Positions 35,302 through 58,449 are shown, counted from the first letter of the stretch. The stretch: 64,000 nt of DNA from Parcubacteria group bacterium GW2011_GWA2_42_14 (GCA_000998135.1 LCCV01000002.1:29421-93420), one strand, 5' to 3'. Notes: generated by a model not told the origin, from the sequence alone. Program-made: numbers and translations.

Positions 35302-35327
35302 AATTAATTAACGATCGTTAATTAATT
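35302..35327. promoter_or_regulatory. 26-bp palindromic operator-like motif AATTAATTAACGATCGTTAATTAATT, 13-38 bp upstream of the LTD-protein start.
   Basis: Perfect palindrome. Near-identical copies are at 57699-57724 and 58424-58449, each upstream of a minus-strand gene. Confidence 0.5.
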
Positions 35328-35351
35328 TTTCACTTTAAATATGGCCATATA

Positions 35352-38300
35352 CTACGGCAATAAATCCGGCGGAATGGTTTTTATGACATTGGAATCATCA
35401 TAAAAGTCAATGCCGCCGTTGTTTATGAGGTGATGCGAACTATCCACAGCCATGCCGACGCCGTTGTCGCGAAAAATCAAATTGCTTATAGTAGTGGTTG
35501 CGCTGCCGGAAATAACCAAAGCGTAATATTGCTTGCCGGGCAATAAATTGTCCCGAAAAATCGTATCCGTAACGGTGCTTGAGGCATTACTCGCGAGCCA
35601 AACGCCCTTAAACTTATTTTTTTCAATCACGGAATTTTTAATGGTAAGCGGCTCATTGCCGCCGGCCTTGATTCCGGCAAGATTATACCGCTCTTCTTCT
35701 CCTCCGGCGTATCTTATAACGGCGCCGTCAAAAACCGCTTCTCCAGAACCCCAAAAATCAATGCCCCGCCAATGCCCCAAAATCGGCTGGCTGGAAGTGG
35801 CGTCATTATTGGTATCCCCGCCGTATTCATCATCATAAAATGATGTAAAAACAACCGGCTCCTCGAGGGTGCCATTAGCCGAAAAAGCTCCGGCAATGGT
35901 CAAACCGGTATTAGGCATAAATTTAAACACCGCGCCCTTTTCCGCGGAAATATTTCCCGCAAACGTGTAATTTCCCCAATCAATAATATAAGGCAAGTCC
36001 TTGGCAAAAACATGATCATTGCCCGCGTTATTCCTGATAATAATTCCTTTAACGCCGGGGCTGTCGGAAATAACAGTGTTTCCTCCGAATAACGGCGGAG
36101 AACTTTCCGCAATGATAACATTTCCATTTTTATCAAAAGTGTTGTTGCGAACTTCTCCGCCATGTATGTCGGAGGAAAAAATTCCTCCGCCATTTTCCAA
36201 AAATGTATTATTTAAAACTTTTGGAGCAGAACCGGCTATTATCAATGCCTCAAGAGCGTTTTTATAAAATACGCTATTTTCTATGTTCGCATTGCAGTTT
36301 ATACAAGACAAACCCCTAAGCAAAGAGTGCTCAAGGCGTGAATTTTTAAACGAAAGAGCCGCGCTTGTGATATAAATCATGGCCCTTCTTTTAAACGGCA
36401 AATTATTATCCATATTTCCACCGTATCTGAAAAACGTGTTTAAAAATTCCGAACCGGAGCTTTCCAAATTAAAAGTGAATTGCCTCCAATTGCCTGCTTG
36501 AGGGCATATCGCGGTTGAAGAAGCGTTTAACGGGTCGCAAACGCCATCTTTATTGGTATCTCCGCCGTATTCATCATCATAAATGCCGGTAAAAACAATT
36601 GGCTCTTCGGGCGCGCCTCGCGAAAAGATTTTTCCGTAAACATTAATAATTGCCCAATAATCATTAGGCGGCATAATCTTTATAACCACGCCCGGCTCAA
36701 TATTAAGAACAGCGCCGTCTCTTATAGTTAAACCCGCTCTTCGGATAAGGTAAGGAGAATTTTCTTTGGTCAGAATTCTATCACCAGTCAAATTTCCGTC
36801 AACGGCAATCAAATAATTAACGCTGTTTCTGGCTTTGGGAGTACCATAAACCGGCCCGTCCTCGGCGTTTTTGTTAATATTGACTATTTCCTCTTCAAAA
36901 TAAGTCCCCCAGTTTGCCTGCGTTTCACCCGGAGCGTCCGGGTCAATTCTTTCCATAGAAAATCTTGCTAACAAAATACCTGCGCACCAGCCGGTAGGGC
37001 GCGAGCGATCCCATGGACAAAGTTCCGGGGTTCTATCAATGGTTCGGCTTGGCTCACCACTGGCGGTCGTAGAACCTTTTTCCAGTTTTAAAATCATTCC
37101 GTTGTCATCAAGCCCCGCGCCGAACGAAGCGATAAAATCGGCCTTAATAATTGATACGGCGTTATCATCATCACGCTCAATCAAATAATAACTTTTGGGC
37201 GCGATTTTACCGGAAAGATTGATTATTATTTTTGGCTCGGGCTCGCCGGGCTTAAAAAATTTCAACTGCCAACCGGTTAAATCAATTTCGGCTTCAGAAC
37301 GGCTCTTTAACTCAATCCATTCATCTTCACTGGTGGTTGCCGAATTGCCGGTTCCCGCCCAGGCGATTTCGTTTATAATGACCGGCATTTGATTTATTTC
37401 TAAGATTTTTACAATTTCAGCCGATTCATTTCCGGTTTTATCTTTGGCTTTAGCGCGAAATTCATAAAAAGTGTTTGGGGAAGCAGTAAAAATAAATGAT
37501 GTCGCAAACGGCGCGGTTGACGACGCCGTTGAGGTCGAACCTCCCATGGGAGGTTCGACCTCTATAAATTTCAGAAAATCGTCGCAATCTTGCCACGGCT
37601 GGCTTGTTTTTTGACGATAAGCGCAATTTAGGAAAAAGGACGCAATATCTTCGCTATTGGACTCCAAAAAAATCGTAAGAGTGGTTGTAGCAATAACGCA
37701 ATCAGTTTGAGAAAAACTGTCAGAACATTCCTGAATGTTCAAAGAAATGTCCGGCGGAGTAGTATCGGTCGTTGTAGTAGCAACACCGAGTGCTGCTGAC
37801 GCTTCAGCATCACTCGGTGTTGAAGCTTGAACCGGCGCAACATATTCCCCGCCCGCGCCAGCTATAAAATCACCCAAAGCATAAGGAGGAGGCGGAGGCG
37901 GAGTTGAAGTAGCAACACCGAGTGTTGGCATTGGTAGAAAAACACTCGGTGTTGAAGTGGCTGCAGGAGCCAAATCTAAAGTTTCAGAATCTATGGAGGT
38001 TGAACCTCCATAGATTTGAGGAACGGGCTCAATATCGGAGGTTTCCGAAATGGTTCGACTCGACTCACCATAAAAAGAGCCGAAATTCGCGATTTCGTCA
38101 TCAGCAACACCGAGTGCTGCCGACGCATCGGCATCACTCGGTGTTGACAACTCCGTTGTCGACTCCGTACTCGTAATAATCGCCGCTGTGTAAGAAGTGT
38201 TACTGTCTGAGCTTGCTTGCCCGTCCAAGTTTTCCGCAGAAAAGTTGGTCAGGGTCGAGAACAAACTACTTGTCCAATTCCACGCTTTCTGCCACCACGA

Positions 38301-39356
38301 GCGGTTTTTAAACCATAATTCCTTTGTTTGCTTTTCCTTTTCCACTTCGTCAAAAAAGAGCTTAACCACCCCGGCGCCGTTAATAACCGCCTGTTTTGAC
38401 AGCAAATTCCAGTAGTCGGTGAGGATGAGGTTGTCGTCGTCAGCAATAGAAAACTTGTTTTTGTTGTCTTTAGGATTCAACAAGTAATACCATCCAAAAG
38501 ATACATCCGACATTACAATATGATATTTTTTATCACTCAAAATACGATAACCAAATAATACGGATAACCCATTTGATAACTGTTCTTCTTCATAAAAACT
38601 TACATCTGGTTTAATAAATAAATCTGAAAAAATAGTATCTTTACTAAAAAAATTATTATTTGAATAGTTTGCCGTTGCATCAAAATAACTACTGATATTT
38701 GATAAAACATATGGTTTTTTACCGCTTTCTATAAGCTCGGCAACCGTATTTAAATTTTCCGGAGAAAATTTTCTGGTCCAATCTTCATAAGGACTTGAGT
38801 TTAAAACTTGAGAATGTTCAAACAGGCCAGCATGACCATCATTACGGGTATGTTCAGGCACAGTTGCGTCTTCCAAAAGATGTAATGTATGCCCCAATGA
38901 CTCCAATCCCCTATTTTTATCTACCCAGGCATAATCGTAAATCGCCCTTTCCCATGAATAATCCGAAGGCGATGAAAATAGGTCAAAAATTGAACCATAA
39001 GTTTTGTCGCGAAACACTCCGTCTTCCTGGGCTTGAGCCAAGGTGTTTTGCGACCAGTCTTTTGAGCTTTCCCAGCTCTCGCCAAGTATAGTAAGACCGC
39101 GATTATAAATCGGGTCGTAAAAATGGTGAAGCCATCTTGTCTCTTCGTCTTCATCAATGCTTCCATTCATTAAAATCGCAATCTCTTCGCTATTTAAGGC
39201 CTTTTCCTGATAATTGTGATTAAAAAAACGGCCGATTTCTTTGGTTAAAGCCGGATGAGTGGTTTGATCGTCATAGGCAAAAACAAGAATGGGCAGAAAT
39301 AAAACAAATACTGCCGCCCCAATCGCTGATATTGTGTGGGAATACTTCGATTGCAT
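35352..39356 (-). CDS. Very large (1334 aa) secreted surface protein with a lamin-tail domain, right-handed beta-helix/pectate-lyase-like repeats and Ala/Ser-rich repeated linkers.
   Basis: N-terminal signal peptide. LTD motif VIINEIAWAGTG...DEWIELKS...DLTGWQLK. Repeated NNTF-type beta-helix segments. Three repeats of PSDA[ED]ASAALGVA. Confidence 0.65.
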   Translation of the reverse strand: MQSKYSHTISAIGAAVFVLFLPILVFAYDDQTTHPALTKEIGRFFNHNYQEKALNSEEIAILMNGSIDEDEETRWLHHFYDPIYNRGLTILGESWESSKDWSQNTLAQAQEDGVFRDKTYGSIFDLFSSPSDYSWERAIYDYAWVDKNRGLESLGHTLHLLEDATVPEHTRNDGHAGLFEHSQVLNSSPYEDWTRKFSPENLNTVAELIESGKKPYVLSNISSYFDATANYSNNNFFSKDTIFSDLFIKPDVSFYEEEQLSNGLSVLFGYRILSDKKYHIVMSDVSFGWYYLLNPKDNKNKFSIADDDNLILTDYWNLLSKQAVINGAGVVKLFFDEVEKEKQTKELWFKNRSWWQKAWNWTSSLFSTLTNFSAENLDGQASSDSNTSYTAAIITSTESTTELSTPSDADASAALGVADDEIANFGSFYGESSRTISETSDIEPVPQIYGGSTSIDSETLDLAPAATSTPSVFLPMPTLGVATSTPPPPPPYALGDFIAGAGGEYVAPVQASTPSDAEASAALGVATTTTDTTPPDISLNIQECSDSFSQTDCVIATTTLTIFLESNSEDIASFFLNCAYRQKTSQPWQDCDDFLKFIEVEPPMGGSTSTASSTAPFATSFIFTASPNTFYEFRAKAKDKTGNESAEIVKILEINQMPVIINEIAWAGTGNSATTSEDEWIELKSRSEAEIDLTGWQLKFFKPGEPEPKIIINLSGKIAPKSYYLIERDDDNAVSIIKADFIASFGAGLDDNGMILKLEKGSTTASGEPSRTIDRTPELCPWDRSRPTGWCAGILLARFSMERIDPDAPGETQANWGTYFEEEIVNINKNAEDGPVYGTPKARNSVNYLIAVDGNLTGDRILTKENSPYLIRRAGLTIRDGAVLNIEPGVVIKIMPPNDYWAIINVYGKIFSRGAPEEPIVFTGIYDDEYGGDTNKDGVCDPLNASSTAICPQAGNWRQFTFNLESSGSEFLNTFFRYGGNMDNNLPFKRRAMIYITSAALSFKNSRLEHSLLRGLSCINCNANIENSVFYKNALEALIIAGSAPKVLNNTFLENGGGIFSSDIHGGEVRNNTFDKNGNVIIAESSPPLFGGNTVISDSPGVKGIIIRNNAGNDHVFAKDLPYIIDWGNYTFAGNISAEKGAVFKFMPNTGLTIAGAFSANGTLEEPVVFTSFYDDEYGGDTNNDATSSQPILGHWRGIDFWGSGEAVFDGAVIRYAGGEEERYNLAGIKAGGNEPLTIKNSVIEKNKFKGVWLASNASSTVTDTIFRDNLLPGKQYYALVISGSATTTISNLIFRDNGVGMAVDSSHHLINNGGIDFYDDSNVIKTIPPDLLP

Positions 39357-39505
39357 AAATTTATAAGTAGCAAAACACCACTAAAACGGCAAGGCCGGGC
39401 CTTTATAACGAAATCCGCTCTGCAAGCGGATTTAAGTTTAAAGATTTTGTGTCTGCGTATGTCTGCATTCTGTCTACGCCGGTCAGCGATGCGTGAAGCG
39501 CATAT

Positions 39506-39976
39506 TTATAAATCTAAAATTTTCCATTTATTGTTTACATTTTTAGCAACTAAAATTGTTAAGGCAACTTGTTTTTGGTCATTAGCAATACTAAAAGACA
39601 CCTGCCCATCAGAAATATCATTTTTATATTTCTTACGTTCTAAATCAAATGTCATTTCGGTAATTTTATTAGCGCTCTTAACATTATTTAAATTCCCTCT
39701 CCACTCCTCCTGCTTGTCCAGCACAAAGTATTTAGAGGCCAAATCAATGTCGCCGGTTTTCAGGGCCGAAATAAAAAGCTCAAGGGTTTCTTCGGGCGTG
39801 TCTCCGCCGTAAGTGTCGGCCATGTAGCGCTCTTTTTGGGCCAAAAGGTCCTGATATTTGTGGTATTCAGGCGAGGTTCTATAGCGATAATATCCTATGC
39901 CAAAGAAAATCCCGGCGCCGATAAGCACTATGACCAAAAACTGTAAAAAGTATTTAATTATGAGTTTTTTGTTCAT
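39506..39976 (-). CDS. Hypothetical membrane-anchored small protein.
   Basis: N-terminal TM helix (FLQFLVIVLIGAGIFFGIGYY), then a soluble domain with no recognised motif. Confidence 0.35.
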   Translation of the reverse strand: MNKKLIIKYFLQFLVIVLIGAGIFFGIGYYRYRTSPEYHKYQDLLAQKERYMADTYGGDTPEETLELFISALKTGDIDLASKYFVLDKQEEWRGNLNNVKSANKITEMTFDLERKKYKNDISDGQVSFSIANDQKQVALTILVAKNVNNKWKILDL

Positions 39977-40217
39977 AATATCAAATTATTATAATTGACT
40001 CAATTACTCTAAGTTACTCTGATTAAAACCAAAAGTCAAATGTCTTGTGTCTTGTGTAACTGTTGAATAATTGCCAAAAAGTTACCTCCTGAACTTTTCG
40101 CAAGACAACTTTTTGGCTTTAAATAAGGTAACCCCTCGACTCTGCTCGGGGGGTAAGAGGATTATTAATAACCTCTGTGGATAACTTTCGGTTTATTTTC
40201 GGTATTAAGGTGTTAAT

Positions 40218-41687
40218 ATGAAAATGATGCTAACTTTACGGCAAAAACAAATACTGGATTTTGTTGCCACCTACGCGCATAAACGGAAAATTGCCCCCTC
40301 GCTTGAAGAAATCAAAAGGCATTTTCGGCTAAAATCGGTTTCAAATATCCATCAGCACCTCAATGCTTTAGCGGCCAAGGGCTATTTAAACAGGTTCAAA
40401 AACCGGAAACGCGGCATTGAGCTCCCCCAATCCGAACGTCTCGTAAAAATACCGCTCTTGGGAGAAATTGCCGCAGGCAAACCGATAGAAGCAATAGAAC
40501 ATAAAGAGTTTATCGCGGTCCCCGAGTCAAAATTGGCTTCAGGCGGGGAAATTTACGCCCTTCGCGTAAAAGGAGACAGCATGATTGACGAACATATAAA
40601 TAACGGGGACACAATTTTAATAAAAAGGCAGAATGTCGCCGAAAACGGCCAAAAAGTGGTAGCGCTCCTTAACGGAAATGAAGCAACGCTTAAAACTTTT
40701 TACAAAGAAAGGGGGCAGATAAGATTGGAGCCGGCCAATAAAAATTATCAACCCCTCATAATAAAAAGGGGGCAGGAGTTTTCTTTGCAGGGCGTTTTAC
40801 TTGATGTAATAAAAACAAATGAGGATGAATGGCAAACAAAACCTTTTACATTGCCAGCCGAAGAAGGAAAAGGGCGACAAACTATTACTTTTCAAAAAAT
40901 CCCTCCTTATTTTGAAGAACGAAATTTTATTTTATATCATGGAGATTGTGTCGGCGTTCTTGCACAACTGCCGCCAGAATCGGTTGATATGATTTTTGCC
41001 GATCCTCCATACAATCTTTCCAATGATGGATTTTCGCTTCACGCCGGCAAAAGAGTTAGTGTAAATAAAGGAAACTGGGATAAGAGCAAGGGGTTTAAAG
41101 ATGACTACGATTTTCATTATCGCTGGCTCAATGCCTGCAAAAATATTCTAAAGCCCAACGGCACTCTTTGGGTAAGCGGAACATACCACTCAATTTATCA
41201 ATGCGGCTACGCGCTGCAATCTCTTGGTTATCACATATTAAATGATATTTCATGGTTCAAACCAAACGGCTCGCCGAATTTGAGCTGCCGTTATTTTACG
41301 GCCTCACACGAAACTTTGCTCTGGGCGCGAAAAGACAAAAAAGCGAAACATTTTTTCAACTATAATTTAATGAAAAAAGGGAATTGGCCGGAAGATTTTA
41401 TTAAAAAACCAAACCTGCAAATGCGTTCGGTTTGGGCGATTTATCCGCCTAAAAAGCCGGAAAAAACTTTTGGCAAACACCCAACGCAGAAGCCGCTAGA
41501 ATTATTAAAGAGAATTATCCTTGCATCAACAAACCCCGGCGCCGTCATTCTTGACCCGTTCACCGGAAGTTCCACAACGGGAATTGCCTCGGAAATAATA
41601 GGAAAAAGAAAGTTTATCGGAATTGATACTGATAAAAAATATCTCGAACTATCCGTAAAACGCTTTAAAGAGATTATGACGACATAA
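40218..41687 (+). CDS. Fusion protein: complete LexA-type repressor (wHTH plus S24 autopeptidase) fused to a beta-class (DPPY...FxGxG) N6-adenine/N4-cytosine DNA methyltransferase.
   Basis: N-terminal 200 aa: LTLRQKQILDFV... wHTH, cleavage-site region LLGEIAAGKPIEA, catalytic Ser in VKGDSMIDE and Lys in GNEATLKTFYK. C-terminal 270 aa: motif IV MIFADPPYN (41001-41012), then ...WVSGTY..., and C-terminal motif I ILDPFTGSSTTGIA. This is a single uninterrupted 489-codon ORF. Confidence 0.8.
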   Translation: MKMMLTLRQKQILDFVATYAHKRKIAPSLEEIKRHFRLKSVSNIHQHLNALAAKGYLNRFKNRKRGIELPQSERLVKIPLLGEIAAGKPIEAIEHKEFIAVPESKLASGGEIYALRVKGDSMIDEHINNGDTILIKRQNVAENGQKVVALLNGNEATLKTFYKERGQIRLEPANKNYQPLIIKRGQEFSLQGVLLDVIKTNEDEWQTKPFTLPAEEGKGRQTITFQKIPPYFEERNFILYHGDCVGVLAQLPPESVDMIFADPPYNLSNDGFSLHAGKRVSVNKGNWDKSKGFKDDYDFHYRWLNACKNILKPNGTLWVSGTYHSIYQCGYALQSLGYHILNDISWFKPNGSPNLSCRYFTASHETLLWARKDKKAKHFFNYNLMKKGNWPEDFIKKPNLQMRSVWAIYPPKKPEKTFGKHPTQKPLELLKRIILASTNPGAVILDPFTGSSTTGIASEIIGKRKFIGIDTDKKYLELSVKRFKEIMTT

Positions 41688-41703
41688 GCAATCTCTACAA
41701 ACC

Positions 41704-42279: not shown

Positions 42280-42357
42280 AACCTCTCTAGTGTAATCTTT
42301 TCAAACGAAATGATCAACCGCCTCTCCGCTCCCTTGCTCGTTGCTCGCCCCGAATAT

Positions 42358-44460: not shown

Positions 44461-47400
44461 TTAGTAGGAAACAACTTCAGCTGCCATGTTCGTCGCGGGC
44501 AGACCTACCACGCCAAATCCATTGGTCCAGTCCTTGCTGGAAAGCGCAGCGGTAGTCGTAGCGTTTGGAGACCAGATTAAGTCATTATGGGTTTGATCAG
44601 CTATACCCGCAGTTGAAGGAGTAGTTGATGCCTGACCCATAATCGGGTTGGTAGCAGACGGTGTTCCGGGTATCAATCCAGGATATGCTCCATCACCTTC
44701 AAGTTGTGTTGATACGGATGAGTTGGTGGAAACCGAGGAAACGGTTGCCACAACATCAAAGTATCTGGTTGCGCCCGCGGGAACTTGAATAACATCTGTA
44801 GGTACTCCTAGAACACTTCCTGACTGAGTTACCGGGTCAAAGTAGACGCTAAACTGGTTACCACCGCCATACAAAACGTTATCCTCAGTTCCAGCGCTAA
44901 ACCATTCTTTCTTATTTTGAACCGGAATCGCGGTATTGTTCAACAAACCGGAATTGGCATAAGCCGCGATTGAGAAGAGAATATCGCTATAACCATACAC
45001 ACGCAAATTCTGCACAGTTGCCGAAGTCGTTGACATCACAAAGGTGAATTTAGCCAATCCTATATCGCCGTGGGAATCCGCGGTTACCTTGAACCTCAAC
45101 AAACTGACAGTACCTGCGGCGAGTTTATTCGTCGACAAGGAAACTTTAGCAAATGTCGGGTAGGACTTGAACATCCTTACGCCGTTGGAAGCTGTGCTTG
45201 AAACCGCGGCAGTATCAGCGGTCTTTGTCTGAATGGTAGAACCGGATGATTGCCCAACGCCTTCCGTTCCCCTGCTGCCTCCGTCAAAATCAACTACAAC
45301 CAAAGCTCCTTCAGTTCCAACCTGCGAAGTGCCGATTGCGCTCAAATCGCCTTTTACGGTCAGAGTCTTATCCCCATCTTTGGGAATCACGAAATCGGCC
45401 GTAAGGGTTGAAGTTGAATAATCGGTACCGGTAAACAAACCTTCTCCGACCTTGGTTGAACCGTCCCACAAAGTATATTTCACAATATCCGCGGGAGCGT
45501 TATTGGTCGTGGAAGAAAGTTTCAATGCAAGTTTTTGAAGCGTAATGGCTTCGTTGGTCGCGTGTAAGTTGAGTAACGCCAACGGAACATCCGTAGTGTT
45601 TCCGGCAACTATCGCGTAAGTCGGACTTGAAGCGCTAAGCGATACGGACAATGAGCCACCTGCAACCAAAGTCATTTCATTCTGATCGTCGGTGGAAGCG
45701 AGATGAGTTACGGTTGCCGCTTGCCCTGATGTAACACCAGTCGCGGAAAGAGTACTTGCCGCAATCTGCCATTCTGCCTGATTACTAGCAGTCAAGTTTG
45801 CAGGAATATTGCACTTGATGGCCAAGGTCTTGGTTGTTCCTTTGGGAATAATCAAGTGGCTATCAAGCGTAAAGGTTTTTGCTCCTTCAGTAGCTATATC
45901 AACAACATTGGTGCCGGTATTCAGGGCGGTTGCTCCGTCCCAAACTTGGCAACCAGTCAAATCTGTCGTATCTGCTCCGGTATCATCCGCAAACGTAAAG
46001 CTAAGGGTGGTAAAACGAATATCCTCGCCGGAAGCCGTTGCGTCAAACACCGGCTTGGCAAAGGTAAATCCTTGTATACCCATAACTACGTTTTGCGCGG
46101 GCGGGTCGGAAGACAAAGTAACAGTAACAACCGCGCTTTTTACAGTCATAGTATTTCCGGTAACTTGTCCAGCTGGAGTCGGGGTAACCGCTGTTCCGGT
46201 AACGGCACCGGTTCCGTTCCTCCAATCCGTTCCCGGAGTGGTGGAAGCGATAATAGTGTCATTATTTTCAAAACCGGAAGTCGCGGCTAATTTGCCCTTT
46301 AAGGTATAAAGGCCTTTTCCAATGGGGAAAGTAATGGAATCGGTAAAGGTTACATATCCATGAGCAACTAAGCTGTTTACGGTATTTCCCGCTTGTCCGT
46401 CAACAGGACCGGCAACAACCGCTCCTGACGGGCCAACCAATACTATATTGTCAATGTCGTCAACATCAATTTCCGCTCCTCCGTCAGAATCAGAAAGAGT
46501 AAAGCGGAAAGAAGTTTCTGGAATCGTTACCGCCTCTCCCTTTACTTCCACATCAAATCCACCCAAGGGCTGGTCAGCAAGAGTTACAGCAACATTTTGC
46601 GATGCTACCGCTGTTGATTTGGATACAACTATGGAGCCAGCGCCGATATTAATGGCATTGGCATTATAAGCCGGGCTAGCTGAATCAAATCCAGCTGTGC
46701 CAGTATCGGCAGGCAATAAGCCATATCCATACTGGGCTCCGACTACATAAAGGTCGTCATGGCGGTAAATGTCAAAATCAACTGTTCTCGCGGAACCGGA
46801 AACAATATCGCCTTTTACGTAAATTTCAGCGGTATTGCCTTTCAAAACTTTGACTCCAGTTCCAAAAACAGAGGTGTAATATTTTCCATCAGAACTTACG
46901 GTCGTGTCATAAGCAGTTCCGGCAACATAAACCTTGACATTAGCAAGGTCGGCCGTGGCCGCGGAACCGGATTGGTTGAATTTGACTGATTTAATCCAGA
47001 TGTCCTCCCCTGCTCCTGCTGTTCCTTTAATAGAAGAGAACACATAACCGGTTGTTCCAACTTCTTTGGTAATACCGGTTGTTGAAGGATCAAGCGGACC
47101 CCTGATAAGGTCAAATCCACCTACAAGGCCTGATGTTTCGTTCATGGTCTGACCGGTGCCTGCAACCGGAAGTCCGGTAACTGTGGCTGAACCAGCGCTC
47201 ACCGCCACAACTGTCAAGCGGATAACCTGTCCGGAATAACCGGTGGTTGCTCCGCGATTAGCGGCAATAGTCATGGTTTTAGAAGTTCCTGCTTTTACGG
47301 TGAAGGGCTCGGTCAAGACCGCCTGATGAAGGGAATTCAAGGTCTTGGAAAGACCTAATTGAAGTCCGTCTTCACCAAGAATAACGATTCCGGAAAGAGC

Positions 47401-48078
47401 CGCATCCTGTCCAATGCCCTGACGTTCAACTGTTACGGAGCTGACAGTTACATCACCGTCAGAACCGGCAGTAAACACTACACTGGTAAATGGAACGCGA
47501 GTTACACTCAACGGAACCAAGGCCGCGGCAGGCTGTGCACCTGCTGATACGCTAAGACCTGTTCCTGATGGAACTGTTGGCGTTGTTGGTGTTTCTGTGG
47601 TTGGCGTTGTTGGTGTTTCTGTGGTTGGCGTTGTTGGAGTTGTTGGAGTTGTTGGAGTTACCGGAGCCACTGCCATTGAATTATACTTTGCCTGGGAAAT
47701 TGGACCAAAGTATCCGACGGCCGGAGAAACCCCGTTTGCCGCCTGCCAAGCAGCTACTGCCGCTTGAGTGACAGAACCGAAATATCCGGTGGCACCCCCC
47801 GCATAAGTGAAGTGACCTGTTGAAGTTAAATAATTCTGCAAGCATGTTACAGCATCCCCTCTTGAACCGACTGTAAGAGCGCTAGTGAAACCGCAAGCGG
47901 CTCCGCCGCCACCTCCTCCGCCGGAAAGGGCGACGAGTTGTGCTTGAAGGGCCGTGATTTGAGCTTGCAACTGGGCAATGAGATCTGCCGTTGACTGTTG
48001 CGCCAATGACGCGACAGGGGTCAGAACCAAAGCTCCGGTAAGCCAAACCGCGGCTGAGGTTGAAATAAATTTATTCAT
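44461..48078 (-). CDS. Giant (1205 aa) secreted cell-surface protein with an N-terminal peptidoglycan-binding-like domain, a PTT-repeat linker and long Thr/Gly/Val-rich beta-repeats.
   Basis: Signal peptide MNKFISTSAAVWLTGALVLTPVASLAQ. A Gly run. PG_binding_1-like GSRGDAVTCLQNYLTSTGHF...GYFGSVTQAAVAAWQAANGV. (PTTPTTETPTT)n linker. The remainder is Ig-like beta-rich. Confidence 0.65.
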   Translation of the reverse strand: MNKFISTSAAVWLTGALVLTPVASLAQQSTADLIAQLQAQITALQAQLVALSGGGGGGGAACGFTSALTVGSRGDAVTCLQNYLTSTGHFTYAGGATGYFGSVTQAAVAAWQAANGVSPAVGYFGPISQAKYNSMAVAPVTPTTPTTPTTPTTETPTTPTTETPTTPTVPSGTGLSVSAGAQPAAALVPLSVTRVPFTSVVFTAGSDGDVTVSSVTVERQGIGQDAALSGIVILGEDGLQLGLSKTLNSLHQAVLTEPFTVKAGTSKTMTIAANRGATTGYSGQVIRLTVVAVSAGSATVTGLPVAGTGQTMNETSGLVGGFDLIRGPLDPSTTGITKEVGTTGYVFSSIKGTAGAGEDIWIKSVKFNQSGSAATADLANVKVYVAGTAYDTTVSSDGKYYTSVFGTGVKVLKGNTAEIYVKGDIVSGSARTVDFDIYRHDDLYVVGAQYGYGLLPADTGTAGFDSASPAYNANAINIGAGSIVVSKSTAVASQNVAVTLADQPLGGFDVEVKGEAVTIPETSFRFTLSDSDGGAEIDVDDIDNIVLVGPSGAVVAGPVDGQAGNTVNSLVAHGYVTFTDSITFPIGKGLYTLKGKLAATSGFENNDTIIASTTPGTDWRNGTGAVTGTAVTPTPAGQVTGNTMTVKSAVVTVTLSSDPPAQNVVMGIQGFTFAKPVFDATASGEDIRFTTLSFTFADDTGADTTDLTGCQVWDGATALNTGTNVVDIATEGAKTFTLDSHLIIPKGTTKTLAIKCNIPANLTASNQAEWQIAASTLSATGVTSGQAATVTHLASTDDQNEMTLVAGGSLSVSLSASSPTYAIVAGNTTDVPLALLNLHATNEAITLQKLALKLSSTTNNAPADIVKYTLWDGSTKVGEGLFTGTDYSTSTLTADFVIPKDGDKTLTVKGDLSAIGTSQVGTEGALVVVDFDGGSRGTEGVGQSSGSTIQTKTADTAAVSSTASNGVRMFKSYPTFAKVSLSTNKLAAGTVSLLRFKVTADSHGDIGLAKFTFVMSTTSATVQNLRVYGYSDILFSIAAYANSGLLNNTAIPVQNKKEWFSAGTEDNVLYGGGNQFSVYFDPVTQSGSVLGVPTDVIQVPAGATRYFDVVATVSSVSTNSSVSTQLEGDGAYPGLIPGTPSATNPIMGQASTTPSTAGIADQTHNDLIWSPNATTTAALSSKDWTNGFGVVGLPATNMAAEVVSY

Positions 48079-51552: not shown

Positions 51553-51578
51553 AAAAAAACGCGCGGTAAACCGCGCGA
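51553..51578 (-). terminator. Rho-independent terminator after the small secreted-protein gene.
   Basis: cgcgcgg-taaa-ccgcgcg stem-loop, followed in the gene sense by ttttttt. Confidence 0.55.
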
Positions 51579-51597
51579 TTATTATTACATTGAAGAT

Positions 51598-51867
51598 TTA
51601 ATTATCGCCCAAAACAACACCAGCTTTACATAATTCATAATCCGAACGGGCGTCTCTGGCTTTTTGGGAAAACCAAAATAAGTTAGGAAAAGTAATTGAG
51701 TATCTCTTTTCAGCTTCATACGCATATAGAGCAGCGTTTTTATAAAATCTTTCATCAAAAATATATTTTTCACAATCCTGCGAGCCAGCATTATTTACGT
51801 TTTCGTGAGCAAAAACTGGCGTAATCAAGAAAAAACCTAAAATCAATACTGCTGAAAAAATCTTCAT
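51598..51867 (-). CDS. Small secreted hypothetical protein (89 aa).
   Basis: Signal peptide MKIFSAVLILGFFLITPVFAHE. Cys-containing mature part. Confidence 0.4.
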   Translation of the reverse strand: MKIFSAVLILGFFLITPVFAHENVNNAGSQDCEKYIFDERFYKNAALYAYEAEKRYSITFPNLFWFSQKARDARSDYELCKAGVVLGDN

Positions 51868-52076
51868 ACTTTCTTATCCTTTTAGGTTTTCAAAAAACCG
51901 TATTTTATCGGTTGCACATCTTAGAATCTATGTCAAGACCTCAAAAACCCCCATCGGTTTACAATGGGAATTTTTTTCTTTCTTTTACTTATTTTTAATT
52001 AAAAGAGATACTTCATGTAGTTTACCTTGAGATTCTTCACAAAGTTAAGAATGACAATCAAAAGGATCAAAATGAC

Positions 52077-54773
52077 TTAAGCCCTAATAGCCTCCCGCCC
52101 CCTTACTCCATTAAAAACTTTGTTTCTGGCCGGAAAGGAAAACACCACCTGCCCCTCTTTAACATCAACCGTTAATTCGTCTCCGGCTTTAATGCGCCCG
52201 GCAATTAATTCTTCCGCTAATTTATTCAGCAAATACGACTGTATGGCCCGTTTTATAGGCCTGGCTCCGTAATGCTCATTATAACCTTTTTCCATTATAT
52301 ATTTTTTGAGAGAATCGCCGAAAACAATGGAAATTTCCTTTTCAGCCATTCTCTGTTTAACTTTTTCCAGCTGCTGTTCCACAATTTTTACAATAACTTT
52401 TTGGGTCAGGCTGTTGAAAATAATCACTTCGTCCAGTCGGTTTAAAAATTCCGGCCGGAAATGACGCTCCAGGGCCTTGCGGATTTTTTCTTTCAAATCC
52501 TCTTCTTTTTTTTCACGAGATTCTTCGGCTTCGCTGGAAAAACCGAGGTCAGCCATCTCCTGCATAAATTCGCTTCCAATATTGGAAGTCATTATTATAA
52601 TGGTATTTTTAAAATTTACTGTCCTGCCTTTGGCATCAGTAAGGCGACCGTTATCAAAAATCTGGAGCATTATATTGAAAATTTCAGGATGAGCTTTTTC
52701 AATCTCGTCAAAAAGAATCACCGAATAAGGACGGTGTTTTATTTTCTCGGTCAATTGCCCTCCTTCTTCATAGCCCACATAGCCGGCAGGAGAGCCGATG
52801 AGTTTGGAAACAGTATGCCGTTCCATATATTCTGACATATCATAACGAACAAGGGCTTTATCGTCATTAAACATAAATTCGGCAAGTGTTTTGGCCAATT
52901 CAGTTTTTCCAACCCCTGTCGGCCCCAAAAACATAAAAGAAGCAATGGGACGATCTTCATCCTGAATGCCGGCGCGGGAACGCCTGACCGCATTGGCAAC
53001 TTTAGAAATCGCTTCATCCTGCCCTATAACGCGACGGGTTAAAACCTCTTCGAGTTTCATCAGTTTTTGCGATTCTGATTCAAGCATTTTGGTTACCGGG
53101 ATATTAGTCCAGCGCGCCACCACCTGGGCAATTTCTTCCTCACCGACTTCCTCCTTAAGCAGTTTTCTTGATGACTGGAGATTTTTTAACCCAGCTTCGG
53201 CTTCGCGCAATTTATTTTCGTTTTGCGGCAAAAGTCCGTATCTTATTTCAGCCACCCTCTCAAAATTTCCTTCCCTTTCAACTTTATCGGCTTCCTGCGC
53301 CAAATCATTCATTTGTTTTTTAAATTCTCCTATCTGATTGATTAAGCCGCGTTCTTCTTTCCACTTAGTGTTCAATTTTTCAAACTTATCTTTAGCTTTA
53401 ACGATTGTTTTTTCAAGAATTTTTAGCCGATTTTTTTGTTTCTTATGCAAAGCCAAATTGCTTTCCGGCTCCTTTTTTAACACCTCTTTCTCAATTTCCA
53501 GCCGAGAAAGTTCTTTCTTTGTCTCATCCACGTCTTTAGGCAAAGAATCCATATCAATTCTCAAAGAAGAAGCGGCCTCGTCAATAAGGTCAATGGCTTT
53601 ATCTGGCAAAAATCTATCGGCTATATAGCGCGAAGAAAGCTGGGCCGCGGCAATCAAAGACGCGTCCGTAATTCTGACGGCGTGGTAAAGTTCGTATTTA
53701 TGTTTCAATCCCCGCAAAATAGCAATAGTTTCCTCAACAGTCGGCTCATCAATATAAACCGGCTGAAAACGCCTAGCCAAAGCCGGGTCCTTTTCTATAT
53801 ATTTATGATATTCTTTCAGGGTTGTGGCCCCGATTGCCCTTAACTCCCCTCTTGCCAAAGCCGGTTTTAACATATTAGAAGCATCAATAGCGCCTTCCGC
53901 GGCCCCGGCTCCTACAATAGTATGAAGTTCATCAATAAAAATCATAAACCTGCCCTTGGCTCTTTCTATTTCACGCAAAATCGCCTTAAGCCGGTCTTCA
54001 AATTCACCTCTATATTTTGTTCCCGCCACAATAGCGCCTATATCAATAGAAATGAGTTCCTTTTCTTTTAATGGTTCAGGTACTTCACCAGAAACAATTC
54101 TTTGGGCAAGACCTTCAGCAATGGCTGTTTTCCCCACACCTGCCTCCCCTATTAAAACAGGATTATTTTTTGTGCGGCGCGATAAAACCTGCATAACCCT
54201 GCGGATTTCGTCATCCCTGCCTATAACCGGGTCAAGTTTTTCCTCGCGAGCCAGTTTAGTTAGATTGCGGGCATATTTTTCCAATACATTATATTTATGT
54301 TCCGGCTCGGGGTCGGTTACTCTTTGCGAACCGCGTAGTCCGGCCAGGGCTTTTAATATATTCTCATGTCCAATATTAATTTCCACCAATACATCTTTGG
54401 CTCTTGAAGGCACTTCGGAAAGCGCTAAAAACAAATGCTCGGTTGAGATAAATTCGTCTTTTAACTGCCCAGCTTCTCTTTGCGCCTGTTCCATAACGCG
54501 CGCCAAATCCTGAGATAAATAAAGGGAAATAACCGGAGAAAGGACGTTTACGCGCGGCAAACCATCCAGTTTTTGAAGCAGTTTATCAACCAAAGAAGAA
54601 ACATTGATTTCAAGCTTTTCCAAAATCGCTTCCACTGTTCCGCCCTCCTGCAAAACCAGGGCGGTAAGCAAATGCAGGGGCTCAATTTGCTGATGAGACC
54701 GCTCAATTGCCAAGTCATGGGCTTTTTTAAGCGCTTCCTGCGCTTTAATTGTGAAGTTGTTGAATGGAGTCAT
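52077..54773 (-). CDS. clpB: ATP-dependent chaperone ClpB.
   Basis: Clp_N repeats, two AAA+ modules ([15 protein letters not shown] and [15 protein letters not shown] Walker A motifs), a long coiled-coil M-domain. Length 898 aa. Confidence 0.9.
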
Positions 54774-55168
54774 TTTTTAGACGCAGTTTTAAACGCAAAC
54801 TATTACGCAATTTTAAACGCAATTTGCGTATAATTTTGCATTTTACTTAGCGTTTAGTTTTGCTTCTACTTAAAATTATAGCAAAATTTTTGAAAGAAAT
54901 CAAACAAAAGAAAAAGCCGTAGAAATTACGACAGTATCTTCATTTTTAAAATCTTCAAAGGATTATCAAACAGCCAATTTAATTCTTTCCAGCAATGTTA
55001 TTTTATTGTGCCTTGATAGTATGTTCTATCGTCTTTTTTCGCGCGGAACAAACACATAAACAACCGCTAAATTAGTAAATTTTTCATTTTCACGCATTGC
55101 AACTGTGTACAAAAGAACCATTTTACGCTCCTGTGCAATCTGATATACTATAACTATACACTATTTTT

Positions 55169-57181
55169 ATGAAAAAAGCAAATTTAATAGCAATCTTAAT
55201 ACTTTCCTTCCAATTTATTCTAATGCTTGCTTCTTCATGGAACGATTCGGCCATTATGGACGAACTGGCGCATATTCCGGCGGCTTACTCTTATGTTTCC
55301 AAAATGGATTACCGGCTAAATCCAGAACATCCTCCGCTAATAAAAGACCTCTCGGCTCTTCCTCTTCTTTTTTTCAGGCCTAATTTTCCTACAGATGTCA
55401 AATCCTGGACAAGGGATAATAACGGCCAATGGACACAGGGCGCGATTTTTCTTTACGAATCAGGAAACAATCCCGATAAAATTATTTTTTGGTCGCGCCT
55501 GCCGATAATGCTTTTATCTGTATTCATGGGCTGGCTGATTTTTTCATTCATCAAAAAAAGATATAACGATAAAATAGCCCTGATGACCCTTGTTTTGTTC
55601 GCTTTTTCCCCGACTTTTCTCGCGCATTCCCGTTTTGTCACCACCGACTTGGCGGCCGCTTTCGGATTTTTCATAGGCATTATCGGCCTCATAATGTTTC
55701 TTGAAAAACCAACTTTGAAAATGACTATGATTGCGGGAATATTTTTTGGCGTCGCCCAACTTCTTAAATTTTCTTTAATACTGCTTATCCCGATTTTTTT
55801 AATAATTATTTTAATTTGGTTCTTCGTTGAAAAATCATATTATCGCGGAATTATCAAATTTCCTTTTTTTATCATACAAATTCTTGGAAAAACTGTTTTA
55901 ATATTTGCCGTTGGCGGCGTGGTTATTTATGGAGTATACGCAATTCATGTAATAAATTATCCGGCTTCCTCAATTGAACCGGATGGGAGGATTTGGACCA
56001 AAAAAGAATTAACCGAGGTTGTGCGATTACCGGAACCGCAAAGAACAGAAAAAATCGCAACCGTTCCACTTTCCCAAATGCGCGATACCGTTTATATATT
56101 GTCATCTTTTGCCGGAGGACCGGATCCGGAAGAATTTGCCTGCGACCCCAAATCAAACGCCGACCTAAAACGAAGAATAAGGTGCCTTGCGGAATTTACC
56201 ATCTGGGCAACGGATAAACCCCTTTTCCGACCCATGGCCCAATTCCTTCTCGGAATAGAAATGGTAATGCAGCGCTCTTCAGGAGGAAATACCGCATACT
56301 TCTTGGGTAAAGTTTCAGCCGGAGGGTGGAAACACTACTTCCCGGTTCTATATATATTGAAAGAGCCGTTAGCGCTTCATATCTTAACCTTAACCGCCCT
56401 GCTTTTTGCAACTTGGCGGGTTTTCAAAGGAAACAAATCATTACGGACGCTTAAAGAATGGATTCATGAAAACTTTTTTGAATTTGTTTCCTTGTTTTTT
56501 ATCGCGTTTTACTGGCTGTATTCAATTCAAAGCCCTTTGAATATCGGAATAAGGCACGTTCTTCCCACATTTCCCTTTATTTATTTTTTGGTGTCCAAAG
56601 AAATTTTTAGATGGCTCTCACTTCAAAAAAATGCCTCTCCTGAAACATGGTTTGAATGGCTCATTACAATTTATAAAAAATATATTGCCTCAATTCCAAA
56701 ATATATTTTTATTTCAACAATGCTTTTATGGCTGGTTTTTGACACTGTTTTTGCCTTCCCTAATTATCTTTCTTATTTTAATGAATTAGCCGGTTCTTGG
56801 AGTTCCAAAAAGATTACCCTGAACATCAAAACAGCCATTGCCAATGGACACGAAATTGCCGTTGATTCCAATTACGATTGGGGACAAGATTTAAAACGGC
56901 TGGCAAAATACGCCGAAGACCACCGCATAAAAAAAATCGCCTTGGATTATTTTGGCGGAGGTTCTCCACGATATTATTTAGGAGATAAATTTGAACCGTG
57001 GTGGTCTGCCAAAGGGCAATCGCACGGCTATTTCGCGATTTCAGCAACATTTTTACAGGGAGCGCACGGAAAACCAGCCAACGGATTTATCCGCAACCCG
57101 CAAGATTCCTACGAATGGCTAAGGCCCTTCCGGCCGATTGACCGAGCGGGAGAGTCAATATTTATTTATAAATTACCTTAA
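55169..57181 (+). CDS. Polytopic membrane glycosyltransferase, PMT/ArnT-like (GT39/GT83).
   Basis: N-terminal loop with DELAHIPAAYSY (DE motif of GT-C enzymes). More than 10 TM helices and a large C-terminal soluble domain. Confidence 0.65.
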   Translation: MKKANLIAILILSFQFILMLASSWNDSAIMDELAHIPAAYSYVSKMDYRLNPEHPPLIKDLSALPLLFFRPNFPTDVKSWTRDNNGQWTQGAIFLYESGNNPDKIIFWSRLPIMLLSVFMGWLIFSFIKKRYNDKIALMTLVLFAFSPTFLAHSRFVTTDLAAAFGFFIGIIGLIMFLEKPTLKMTMIAGIFFGVAQLLKFSLILLIPIFLIIILIWFFVEKSYYRGIIKFPFFIIQILGKTVLIFAVGGVVIYGVYAIHVINYPASSIEPDGRIWTKKELTEVVRLPEPQRTEKIATVPLSQMRDTVYILSSFAGGPDPEEFACDPKSNADLKRRIRCLAEFTIWATDKPLFRPMAQFLLGIEMVMQRSSGGNTAYFLGKVSAGGWKHYFPVLYILKEPLALHILTLTALLFATWRVFKGNKSLRTLKEWIHENFFEFVSLFFIAFYWLYSIQSPLNIGIRHVLPTFPFIYFLVSKEIFRWLSLQKNASPETWFEWLITIYKKYIASIPKYIFISTMLLWLVFDTVFAFPNYLSYFNELAGSWSSKKITLNIKTAIANGHEIAVDSNYDWGQDLKRLAKYAEDHRIKKIALDYFGGGSPRYYLGDKFEPWWSAKGQSHGYFAISATFLQGAHGKPANGFIRNPQDSYEWLRPFRPIDRAGESIFIYKLP

Positions 57182-57221
57182 TAATTTTTTTACCTGAGTT
57201 AATCCTATATGAATGCAACTG

Positions 57222-57247
57222 TTATGATGTTTTGAAACATCATAACA
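57222..57247. terminator. Perfect 11-bp stem / 4-nt loop hairpin between convergent genes (candidate bidirectional terminator).
   Basis: gttatgatgtt-ttga-aacatcataac. Only weak T-tracts flank it. Confidence 0.35.
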
Positions 57248-57305
57248 ATAATAAATTATTAAATCATAAAAACAAAAACTACCCGGCTATGGGCAGTATA
57301 TTTTT

Positions 57306-57614
57306 TTATCCGGATTCTCCGCCTTCGTCATTAGAACCATCAAGTTCTTTGGGTTCTTCTTGTTGAACAATAAGTTCACGGGGGTCACAATCTTCCACTC
57401 GCGCAATTTCGCGTAAATTATCCACCATCATAGATTTGTAAGGATGAACCAATTTTTTAATTGCCGCAACAACTTGCCTTGGGGTAAGACCGTCAGGCAT
57501 CAAGCAAATTTCGTCAGGTTTTGGGTGCCGTTCTAACCACCGTGCCCAAGCCGCAATAATTTCTTCGTCCGTTCGCTCAACGTAGGCCATGTTGCATCTC
57601 TCCCTTATTTTCAA
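57306..57614 (-). CDS. Small hypothetical protein.
   Basis: ORF only. The likely start is the internal MAYVERTDEE. Palindromic motif 57699-57724 is upstream. Confidence 0.35.
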   Translation of the reverse strand: MKIRERCNMAYVERTDEEIIAAWARWLERHPKPDEICLMPDGLTPRQVVAAIKKLVHPYKSMMVDNLREIARVEDCDPRELIVQQEEPKELDGSNDEGGESG

Positions 57615-57698
57615 AGATACTCTTCAAACATAAGATTGAGAAATAAAAAAGTCAAACACCTAACCCAAAAGAAAAGTGTTTTAAACATTTTTTAAAAA

Positions 57699-57724
57699 AA
57701 TTAATTGACGATCGTTAATTAATT
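57699..57724. promoter_or_regulatory. 26-bp palindromic operator-like motif AATTAATTGACGATCGTTAATTAATT.
   Basis: Copy 2 of the motif family (see 35302 and 58424). Confidence 0.5.
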
Positions 57725-57779
57725 TTTAAATATCTCCATATACATATACCGATTAACTCACACCATCAAACCGCTATTA

Positions 57780-58406
57780 TCAAACCAGCAAACCGAAAAA
57801 TTTACGGACTTTTATTTCGCTAAAACCAAGATCATCACTTACAACATATTGAACATATCTTTCAACATCAAAAAAGCGAGTTACAAAATCAATTTCATCC
57901 CGGCATTCATAAGGAAGCACAAATACGCTTTTTTGCAAAGGATAAAAACCAAGTTTAGACATTTTTTCGCGCAAAGCATTGCGGCTTTTCTTGTTTTTTT
58001 CCGGGATATCAAAAAAAACTATATGCCATCTCTCATTCCATTTCTCCGGCTTCAGAATTTTAATATCCTCGATATCAAATCTGCGAAGCGCGGATTTTCC
58101 TTCCTTCGTAATAACAATAAAAGTTTCTTTGCCGCGTTCTAAATACTTAACCAACCGCCGTTGGCGAAGACGTTCAACCGCCAAACGAAGTTTTCTCTGC
58201 TCTACTTCCCATTCTCTTTTGTCCCTATCCTCAAAATATTCAAGAAGCGGTTTTAGGGCTATGGGGAGACCAGGAACAACCACAAAGACGGCCAACGCGA
58301 CACCGGTCGCCGCGCATCCGGCAATAATCTTTAAAGCATGATAAGCGGGCGAGCCAAAAACCACGCTTCCGGCCTTTCTTCCTTTTTTATTCGCTGGTTT
58401 ATGCAT
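57780..58406 (-). CDS. Membrane-anchored winged-helix protein. Its C-terminal region has a Cas2/PaaX_C-like beta-alpha pattern (speculative).
   Basis: N-terminal TM helix. RRLVKYLERGKETFIVITKEGKSALRRF is wHTH-like. HIVFFDIPEKNKKSRNALREKMSKLGFYPLQKSVFV resembles the Cas2/PaaX C-domain core. Palindromic motif lies 18-43 bp upstream. Confidence 0.35.
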   Translation of the reverse strand: MHKPANKKGRKAGSVVFGSPAYHALKIIAGCAATGVALAVFVVVPGLPIALKPLLEYFEDRDKREWEVEQRKLRLAVERLRQRRLVKYLERGKETFIVITKEGKSALRRFDIEDIKILKPEKWNERWHIVFFDIPEKNKKSRNALREKMSKLGFYPLQKSVFVLPYECRDEIDFVTRFFDVERYVQYVVSDDLGFSEIKVRKFFGLLV

Positions 58407-58423
58407 TAATAAGCATTATAAAA

Positions 58424-58449
58424 AATTAAAAGACGATCGTCAATTAATT
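58424..58449. promoter_or_regulatory. 26-bp palindromic operator-like motif AATTAAAAGACGATCGTCAATTAATT.
   Basis: Copy 3 of the motif family. Confidence 0.5.

Follow-up and report, generated by a model that had tools for sequence, protein, structure and literature searches.

A PaaX-like winged-helix gene bracketed by two palindromic elements in bacteria of the Candidate Phyla Radiation

Background

PaaX, the GntR-type repressor of phenylacetate catabolism in Escherichia coli and Pseudomonas, is built of a winged helix, a motif for dimerisation and an effector domain at the C-terminus; its target is an inverted repeat, and by steric hindrance it keeps its own promoter repressed (PMC9493321). 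Here we describe a shorter protein of related build, which we term mini-PaaX, together with a palindromic element that flanks its gene on both sides, in a stretch of 64,000 nucleotides (henceforth the window) from Parcubacteria group bacterium GW2011_GWA2_42_14 (GCA_000998135.1, LCCV01000002.1:29421-93420), a Candidatus Sungbacteria genome of the Candidate Phyla Radiation (CPR, or Patescibacteria). The likeness to PaaX lies in a winged helix followed by a central, Cas2-like domain; PaaX is also the best fold match among structures in the PDB. In contrast to PaaX, mini-PaaX has only 208 residues, lacks the phenylacetyl-CoA effector domain and carries a hydrophobic segment near its N-terminus. 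The cognate sites likewise differ: the PaaX site is TGATTC-N27-GAATCA, whereas the palindromes found here are compact and have a CGATCG apex. Moreover, no paa genes lie nearby, and the mini-PaaX gene is bracketed by two sites. TTHA0973 is a TetR-type PaaR and has no bearing on the present protein.

Other described systems share different aspects of this arrangement. The repetitive extragenic palindromic (REP) elements and their associated RAYT gene resemble it in that a single-copy gene lies between two short hairpin palindromes that co-evolve with the protein, with further solitary copies in intergenic regions. However, mini-PaaX is not an HUH/Y1 transposase, its conserved columns hold no His-x-His motif, its palindromes number a few per tens of kb as opposed to hundreds of REP copies per genome, and the apex of the module is conserved across phylum-level diversity. 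The HrcA/CIRCE system similarly joins a winged-helix repressor to a widely conserved inverted repeat beside its own operon, and CIRCE works at two levels, as an operator in DNA and as a hairpin in mRNA. It nevertheless involves another protein family and another sequence, and CIRCE marks chaperone operons instead of bracketing the regulator gene. Finally, the C-terminal domain of mini-PaaX matches Cas2 models and folds, including a conserved Asp, and its association with palindromic repeats recalls Cas2 and VapD. Unlike these, the domain is fused to a winged helix and the repeats lie 0.7 and 22 kb apart in the window; no array of this palindrome occurs there, and the rest of the window was not searched for cas1 or other repeat arrays.

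Results and Discussion

Palindromes of the window and the gene enclosed by two of them

The preliminary description of this DNA reported a 26-bp palindrome in three copies, each upstream of a minus-strand gene, and proposed that these were dimeric-repressor operators of a small regulon, with the adjacent winged-helix gene encoding the cognate, autoregulated factor. The features central to our analysis are the following:

58424..58449, no strand assigned: site 3, the upstream bracket palindrome of the regulator gene; sense strand AATTAATTGACGATCGTCTTTTAATT
57780..58406, minus strand: the mini-PaaX gene, encoding 208 residues with a basic N-terminus, a transmembrane-like hydrophobic segment, a winged helix and a Cas2-like (PaaX_M) domain
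57696..57727, no strand assigned: site 2, the downstream bracket palindrome of the regulator gene; a dyad of 32 bp including its extension by an A/T run
35301..35328, no strand assigned: site 1, an extra, solitary copy; AAATTAATTAACGATCGTTAATTAATTT

The existence of the three copies is fully borne out. A pattern scan of the window for TTAATTNACGATCGTNAATTAA, for which 0.01 matches are expected by chance, recovered it without mismatch at 35304-35325 and 57701-57722 and with two mismatches at 58426-58447, and not one of 100 shuffles reached three matches. The octamer ACGATCGT is found three times in the 64 kb, always at these palindromes (the hexamer CGATCG occurs four times), and a chance origin can thus be ruled out. 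When every C[GT]AT[CA]G of the window was examined in a structure-aware scan, no additional element of the kind emerged.

All three palindromes are intergenic and lie between genes that are all on the minus strand. Site 3 is imperfect, with two T-T mismatches (AATTG...CTTTT); it lies 44 nt after the stop codon of an FtsQ-like gene, whose product is 100% identical to a protein recorded from Candidatus Sungbacteria bacterium RIFCSPLOWO2_12_FULL_41, and ends 17 nt before the ATG at 58406. Site 2, which has a single asymmetric position (G...T), is situated 53 nt past the stop of the winged-helix gene and ahead of a small open reading frame (ORF) that, with the FtsQ-like gene, makes up the two nearest neighbours of the regulator gene. 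Site 1 lies between the stop codon of a beta-helix/Lamin Tail Domain (LTD) gene (35352..39356, 24 nt away) and an LTD-PKD surface-protein gene, 12 nt from the first ATG of the latter ORF. Its flank resembles that of site 2 (GTATATG...ATATTTAAA), and at position 5 an A:T to G:C exchange separates it from site 3. Of the distances to gene starts given in the preliminary description, that for site 3 approximately holds; at sites 1 and 2 the likely start codons (ATG at 35220 and 57590) are some 80 and 105 nt away, respectively.

A conserved gene-bracketing module

The exact 22-mer pattern, scanned in 185,579 species genomes, was found at 9 loci in 6 other CPR genomes belonging to WWE3, Saccharibacteria and unclassified Patescibacteria, and at three of the nine a homologue of the winged-helix gene lies directly beside it. 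We then collected the genomic contexts of homologues by exact-protein look-up (loci L010-L014 and L095-L098) and by a protein-pattern scan that supplied 80 metagenome loci. In the resulting set of about 90 loci from diverse CPR lineages, nearly every homologue (32-92% identity) is flanked by two copies of the palindrome, one shortly before the start codon and the other shortly past the stop.

An RNAfold-based finder detected 116 non-redundant apex-centred hairpins in 153 flanks, with a median span of 50 nt. Up to 220 nt from the gene their density reaches 3.34 per kb; the other 394 kb of these loci have 0.091 per kb, a value that is partly noise, and the enrichment is thus 37-fold. Furthermore, a repeat of at least 10 nt is common to both flanks in 59 of 69 loci, though some of the shortest, A/T-only matches among these are probably due to chance. 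Across 661 kb of loci, the dominant centres among strong palindromes are ACGATCGT, GCGATCGC, GCTATAGC, CCTATAGG, CCGATCGG and GCTATCGC, and 64 of 71 are intergenic. The apex, C-K-A-T-M-G, is constant across genomes, while the arms are variable. Within the clade of the window (the window itself, L095-L098, L010 and L011, with 55-92% protein identity), ATTAA boxes are found at positions 8-12 to both sides of the central CGATCG, with a 14-bp gap between the two.

The locus L092 bears on the specificity of this association, as it contains two divergent paralogues of the gene, one on either side of a gene for an Xer-like recombinase. The first has palindromes of the type CACAATTCCACGCGATCGCGTGGAATTGTG on both sides and the second another type, CCCATTTTATGTCCGATCGGACATAAAATGGG, again on both sides; in other words, the copies around each gene have stayed alike while the two units have diverged. 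As each paralogue has its own type, the specificity of the palindrome tracks the protein, and this pattern is the expected one if each protein reads its own element. Taken with the flanking of homologues throughout the CPR, it upholds the proposal that the adjacent winged-helix gene is the partner of the palindrome, a link that these genomic comparisons strongly support.

By the same comparisons, the conserved CPR unit is one of element, gene and element in succession. Because homologues are bracketed likewise across CPR loci, we identify sites 3 and 2 of the window as the two halves of the conserved bracket, and site 1 as an extra copy. Searches of Rfam and of the full-text literature found neither a family nor a published description of the module, which is apparently undescribed. 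It is probably a self-regulating unit rather than a simple regulon of three genes.

The mini-PaaX protein

The best Pfam match of the protein is to PF20803 (PaaX_M, the Cas2-like central domain) over residues 121-196 (E = 9.5e-22; 77.3 bits against a cut-off of 24). The Cas2 models PF09827 of Pfam (26.4 against a threshold of 23.8) and TIGR01573 of NCBIfam (29.6 against 24.5) are also matched, in both cases with the alignment limited to the first 40 residues of the domain. The NCBIfam PaaX model TIGR02277 gives a partial match over profile positions 31-160 of 279 (E = 8.5e-10), with a score of 38.6 bits that is far under the equivalog cut-off of 264.55 bits, and the Pfam scan gave no match to the N-terminal PaaX domain PF07848. 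The remaining Pfam matches are weak ones to winged-helix and THUMP domains, with no transposase or recombinase domain among them, and models of defence systems detect the Cas2 domain only. A profile search against PDB sequences produced weak matches to the winged helices of PadR and AspA (E = 0.005).

The AlphaFold model has a mean confidence (pLDDT) of 70, which rises above 90 in the Cas2-like part, and shows a helix, a helix and a beta-hairpin at 62-71 in the region of the winged helix-turn-helix at the N-terminus. A fold search of the PDB with this model retrieved E. coli PaaX (8a39, 137 aligned columns) as the top match, followed by Cas2 and VapD structures. There is no C-terminal effector domain, the protein ending about 10 residues past the Cas2-like domain. 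The conserved columns of the family comprise an invariant Asp in the motif FDIPE, at the end of strand 1, and a Q-x-S-V-F strand; we take the Asp of FDIPE to correspond to the catalytic Asp of the Cas2 nucleases.

This is a large family, its clusters at 50% identity numbering 977 for E<=1e-30 and 3,383 for E<=1e-10, and the transmembrane-like segment is present in 46 of 56 homologues. In the window's protein, residues 1-50 begin with the strongly basic stretch MHKPANKKGRK, followed by the hydrophobic segment of about 25 residues. Gene callers place the start at a GTG 14 codons further in (P0001, 194 residues), but the longer N-terminus is conserved among homologues. The WWE3 homologue at L006 (6486-7230, JAUXAW010000004.1) has a frame that seems to run about 240 nt beyond the Cas2-like domain, and this homologue may resemble PaaX more fully, with a domain at the C-terminus; its upstream palindrome is degenerate (TCTCACGATCGTGAAATT) and its downstream copy perfect.

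A predicted promoter overlapping site 3

The upstream bracket palindrome of the window coincides with a promoter-like sequence:

58415..58443, minus strand: predicted sigma-70-like promoter of the regulator gene, with 11 of 12 consensus matches, the best in a 5-kb scan

Its -35 hexamer, TTGACG (58443-58438), lies within site 3 and is separated by a 17-nt spacer from the -10 hexamer TATAAT (58420-58415), with the ATG of the gene 8 nt further on; site 3 covers both the -35 box and the spacer. Such a promoter, if used, would give a leaderless or near-leaderless mRNA. In the close relative L095 (92% identity of the protein), the window's 49 nt between palindrome and ATG recur without change whereas the flank upstream has diverged; the sequence of site 3 is the same, and a perfect palindrome stands at the place of site 2. 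The arrangement TTGACG-17-TATAAT is likewise kept over a perfect palindrome in L097 (63%). L096 shares the imperfect right arm of site 3 (GACGATCGTCTTTTAATT) and carries a T:A to A:T flip. In the broader set, hexamers resembling a -10 box are enriched at 20-40 nt downstream of upstream elements, numbering 35 in 62 elements as compared with 15 in 50 downstream elements. These observations support the presence, in the lineage of the window, of a putative operator over the -35 box and spacer of the regulator promoter.

A proposed mechanism

Based on the above, we propose that the palindromes are the cognate sites of a dimeric mini-PaaX, with autorepression at site 3, site 2 as a second anchor and site 1 as an additional target, a reading to which we assign roughly even chances. 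By analogy with PaaX, in which the equivalent dimerisation motif acts in this way, mini-PaaX probably dimerises through its Cas2-like domain, and such a homodimer would present two winged helices to the dyad. Bound at site 3, across the -35 box and spacer, the dimer would shut off its own transcription, as PaaX does at the Px promoter. Site 2 could serve as the second conserved anchor, either closing a loop with site 3 or acting as a roadblock that insulates the one-gene unit from its neighbours, and site 1 may extend this control to the LTD surface-protein gene. Instead of this, or in addition, the protein may read the elements in stem-loop form.

Several lines of evidence weigh against this proposal. 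First, the promoter at site 3 is a consensus match only, and its geometry is not kept in L096 or L011. The position of site 3 at the gene's own promoter, a layout shared by L095 and L097, does fit the earlier suggestion of an autoregulated factor. Second, the downstream copies of the bracket are kept even where the next gene is convergent, that is, away from any promoter, and extra copies are likewise found in gaps between convergent genes. Third, the N-terminus is strongly basic ahead of the hydrophobic segment, and under the positive-inside rule the DNA-binding part is consequently predicted to be extracellular, a placement incompatible with a chromosomal role; the charge bias around the transmembrane-like segment is, across the family, ambiguous. 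Fourth, the Cas2-type Asp may equip mini-PaaX for a nuclease role.

A fifth line of evidence comes from the elements themselves, which co-vary in the manner of a stem. In our gapless, centre-anchored alignment of 68 elements (A3), standard pairs fill 87.9% of the cells, against 50.2% in shuffles and about 40% with a slid partner; the elements had been chosen for dyad symmetry, which inflates the paired fraction, but the occurrence of different sequences at the same paired positions is unaffected by this choice. The covariation score is 0.878 compared to 0.214, and none of 500 shuffles reached the observed value. Copies within the same locus are separated by 49 pairing-preserving double changes and 153 single changes, many of the latter being located beyond the arm of the shorter copy; about 3 compensated pairs would be expected under independence, by a rough estimate from the rate of single changes. 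Some palindromes extend to as much as 76 bp (L045). Sense-strand folds are about 1.2 kcal/mol more stable than antisense folds (65 vs 47, Wilcoxon p=0.009), and G:T mismatches outnumber A:C mismatches by 41 to 23.

DNA operator or RNA hairpin

The covariation is distributed unevenly along the arms. At positions 8-17 from the centre, self-pairing amounts to 0.83-1.0, versus 0.28-0.5 when an arm is matched to arms of other loci, and at positions 5-7 it is weaker (0.71-0.75). Compensated changes are exemplified by L017 (GTTG/CAAC and ACCG/CGGT), L027, L050, L026, L076 and L081. The general architecture comprises a lower stem that varies, a middle that is rich in A/T and partly unpaired, a short stem towards the apex and a loop of 4 nt. 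Through the compensatory changes the half-sites are not conserved as independent sequences, unlike what would be expected of the operator of a plain dimeric repressor, and, as judged from these alignments, the element behaves as a hairpin and not only as two half-sites. Template switching in quasi-palindromes can perfect their arms without selection, and covariation alone is for this reason no proof of a functional hairpin.

These properties recall structured RNA, and one could suppose that the elements form stem-loops in the untranslated regions, 5' and 3', of the transcript of the regulator itself and of a few others, and that the protein binds or cleaves their conserved apex, thereby setting the stability or translation of its own mRNA. 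RNase III and RNase E offer a precedent, as both autoregulate through hairpins in their own leaders, and the fold of Cas2 and VapD with its conserved Asp is a known ribonuclease fold. The four-part architecture with compensatory changes inside single genomes is typical of RNA, the recurrent CATAA/TTGTG wobble in L018 and L022 is of the same nature, and both copies accompany the gene whatever the orientation of its neighbours. The greater stability of sense-strand folds and the excess of G:T mismatches are further hints at RNA. However, this strand bias is modest, and a leading-strand excess of G and T could yield it equally. The best promoter in the window and its closest relatives uses the palindrome as -35 box and spacer, which would leave the hairpin outside the mRNA, and many copies are perfect DNA palindromes, some as long as 76 bp, that are free of any G:U pair or bulge and are met with in either orientation. 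Rfam scans of the window region and ten loci gave no family match, only generic hits to miRNA-type hairpins far below the gathering scores. Asymmetric apexes exist in both orientations, which leans towards duplex DNA, as does the lack of a T-tract after the hairpins; CTATCG and CGATAG are distributed 5:0 in downstream copies and 4:5 in upstream copies, numbers too small for a decision. On balance we consider control at the RNA level unlikely.

Hairpin covariation, the retained Cas2-type Asp and the double bracket do leave room for an RNA or single-stranded DNA hairpin as the ligand, as well as for a mobile cassette. A more radical variant, which strikes us as distinctly doubtful, is that a protein of Cas2 fold and winged helix recognises, and perhaps nicks or processes, the C-K-A-T-M-G stem-loops that bracket its own gene.

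A more trivial explanation of the hairpins would be that they are ordinary bidirectional intrinsic terminators, unrelated to the protein and sharing their sequence by chance. Each of the window's three palindromes does lie 24-53 nt past a stop codon, and T runs come after it on the sense strand. Yet their stems are nearly all A/T, with folding energies of -5 to -10.7 kcal/mol and a z-score of only -0.4 for the sense strand of site 2, and family-wide the hairpins are not followed by a T-tract (on average 3.3 T in 10 nt, equal to the count of A before them). We accordingly ruled out canonical terminators. A conserved apex, association with one gene family and paralogue-specific types are, moreover, not properties of terminators, and the explanation as a whole is scarcely credible.

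Extra copies and the question of a regulon

The genes on the far side of sites 1 and 2, which had been regarded as further members of a regulon, are as follows:

33568..35289, minus strand: gene for the LTD and PKD surface protein of 573 residues, downstream of site 1; likely start at ATG 35220
57306..57590, minus strand: small ORF downstream of site 2, encoding 94 residues from ATG 57590, with the Shine-Dalgarno sequence GGGAGAG

The likely start of the LTD gene was placed at 35220 because a signal peptide (MRKSFILIL...) opens there. By our own reading, site 1 is without a -35/-10 pair in the geometry seen at site 3; control of this gene by the regulator through site 1 is possible. As for the small ORF, the sole promoter-like match ahead of it (57655-57627, 9 of 12 consensus matches, not above the shuffled background) lies about 45 nt past site 2, and the ORF is probably not the reason why site 2 exists.

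In other genomes, extra copies were encountered between DprA and TopA, GT4 and WecG, UppS and HAD, L27 and PyrG (convergent), and MreB and MreC, between a lipoate ligase gene and a lipoyl-domain gene, and after RseP and RNase H (both convergent). These are housekeeping genes with no common function, and a coherent regulon formed by the neighbours of extra copies was therefore ruled out.

The simplest model, in which the winged-helix protein acts as repressor at three independent operators of three minus-strand promoters and nothing more is to be read into the element, draws on the dyad symmetry, the closeness to three gene starts, the adjoining regulator gene and the overlap of site 3 with a promoter. 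It fits poorly with the rest of the evidence: site 2 is the downstream bracket of the whole family, found even before convergent genes; the regions ahead of the small ORF and the LTD gene have the promoter properties just described; and the neighbours of extra copies elsewhere share no function. Since, in addition, such copies lie off promoters and the arms co-vary, the view of the three palindromes as operators of a small regulon is not supported in its original form, and we rate a simple regulon as highly unlikely.

Mobility and the Xer connection

The preliminary description had named, as an outcome that would refute it, a larger mobile repeat present at many non-promoter positions. Copies at non-promoter positions do occur, but they are few. 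A mobile or selfish cassette might nonetheless be envisaged, in which the unit of hairpin, gene and hairpin moves or is copied by means of its hairpin ends, the solitary copies being scars or targets, and the protein or a nearby Xer recombinase acting on the hairpins; analogies are REP elements with their RAYT gene, the ends of IS200/IS605, integron attC cassettes and Xer-dependent dif modules. The flanking of the gene by two co-evolving hairpins and the additional solitary intergenic copies would agree with this, as would the inverted orientation of the ends in one lineage (L029, L040). Against it, the protein has no domain of a transposase or recombinase by Pfam, the elements are sparse, with 3 in the 64 kb here and some 0.09 per kb at a distance from the gene, and a recombination site with so symmetric an apex would lack direction.

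Close relatives differ in where the unit is placed. In relatives with FtsQ identities of 82%, 71% and 49%, the MetK-FtsQ synteny is kept with neither the element nor the gene after FtsQ, and in L096 the unit sits after an S30AE gene. Low synteny is, however, common in CPR genomes. No empty site with a single element was seen in the MetK-FtsQ relatives, and integration at a pre-existing palindrome is thus not demonstrable there.

Copy number and distribution point away from mobility. A tblastn search with the family detected a single copy of the gene at each locus, which ruled out a multicopy insertion sequence; it missed the second, divergent paralogue of L092, which was recognised by Pfam. 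Only 1 relative was found among 2.9 million viral contigs, ruling out a phage-borne element; the 9 viral matches to a 16-base pattern are estimated to be within chance. The single copy, the large size of the family and its near-absence from viral contigs fit a resident regulator.

An Xer-like tyrosine recombinase gene lies within 1 kb of the motif in L001 (139-1098), L002 (7393-7995), L008 (1144-1428) and L092 (8888-9952), more often than expected by our own chance estimate for the 66 kb of pattern-derived loci. In L001 the recombinase gene stops 6 nt before a solitary copy of the palindrome. Kinship among three of the four recombinases means that the association may be synteny within one lineage; alternatively, it could reflect a link to recombination. 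We also observed apparent tRNA genes on the opposite strand in L001 (1130-1400), right after the solitary palindrome, which consequently lies between them and the recombinase gene in a layout typical of integration hot spots.

In common with Xer/dif systems, the module has a short palindromic site with a centre of 6-8 bp, genes bracketed by two sites, and an Xer-like gene nearby at these four loci. It differs from them in its symmetric centre, its several copies per genome, its location away from any skew switch and its arms that vary within a genome. In the window, no Xer match was found and the GC skew is monotonic across the palindromes, with no switch at the sites. With three copies and the symmetric centre CGATCG besides, a dif site in the window was ruled out. 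Taken together, these points make a mobile cassette distinctly unlikely in our estimation.

Other features of the window

The region 33568-39356 holds two neighbouring large surface proteins with LTDs, site 1 being located between their genes. The larger, of 1334 residues (35352..39356), combines the LTD with beta-helix/NosD repeats, and the LTD region shows a weak resemblance to the extracellular exonuclease ExeM.

A different, G+C-rich palindrome of 42 bp, AAATTTTCCGCCGAAGGCGGATCCGCCTCTGGCGGAGAATTT, is present at 22589-22630 and consists of two back-to-back TCCGCC-NNN-GGCGGA hairpins. A near-identical core of it recurs in two unrelated CPR metagenome contigs (L076, 3599-3628; L050, 3474-3511), and it may serve as a conserved terminator in both directions or as the site of some other protein.

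Between 44000 and 52000 the GC content shifts abruptly, from 0.47-0.50 over 44-48 kb to 0.33-0.35 over 48-52 kb. The high-GC stretch contains an ORF of 1205 residues (44461..48078), and no ORF of at least 60 residues is listed between 48078 and 49454.

Conclusion

Gene regulation in the CPR is nearly unknown, and CPR genomes carry very few regulators. Against this background, about 1,000 clusters (at 50% identity, E<=1e-30) of PaaX/Cas2-like proteins of around 190 residues, paired with a recognisable cis element, provide a directly testable pair of protein and site in uncultivated bacteria. Operators do not usually come as a double bracket around the gene or show covariation of the hairpin type. 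Should the stem-loop prove to be the ligand, this would represent a new way for a protein of the Cas2 fold to work with palindromic repeats. If the protein recognises or processes the stem-loops, the module would be a functional analogue of REP/RAYT or of the IS200 ends assembled from unrelated parts and widespread in the CPR, and mini-PaaX would be a free-standing Cas2-like protein tied to palindromic repeats outside CRISPR. The motif rule that emerges from our analysis, namely a C-K-A-T-M-G apex within a dyad of 30-60 nt to either side of a PaaX_M gene, offers a means of annotating such sites in thousands of genomes.

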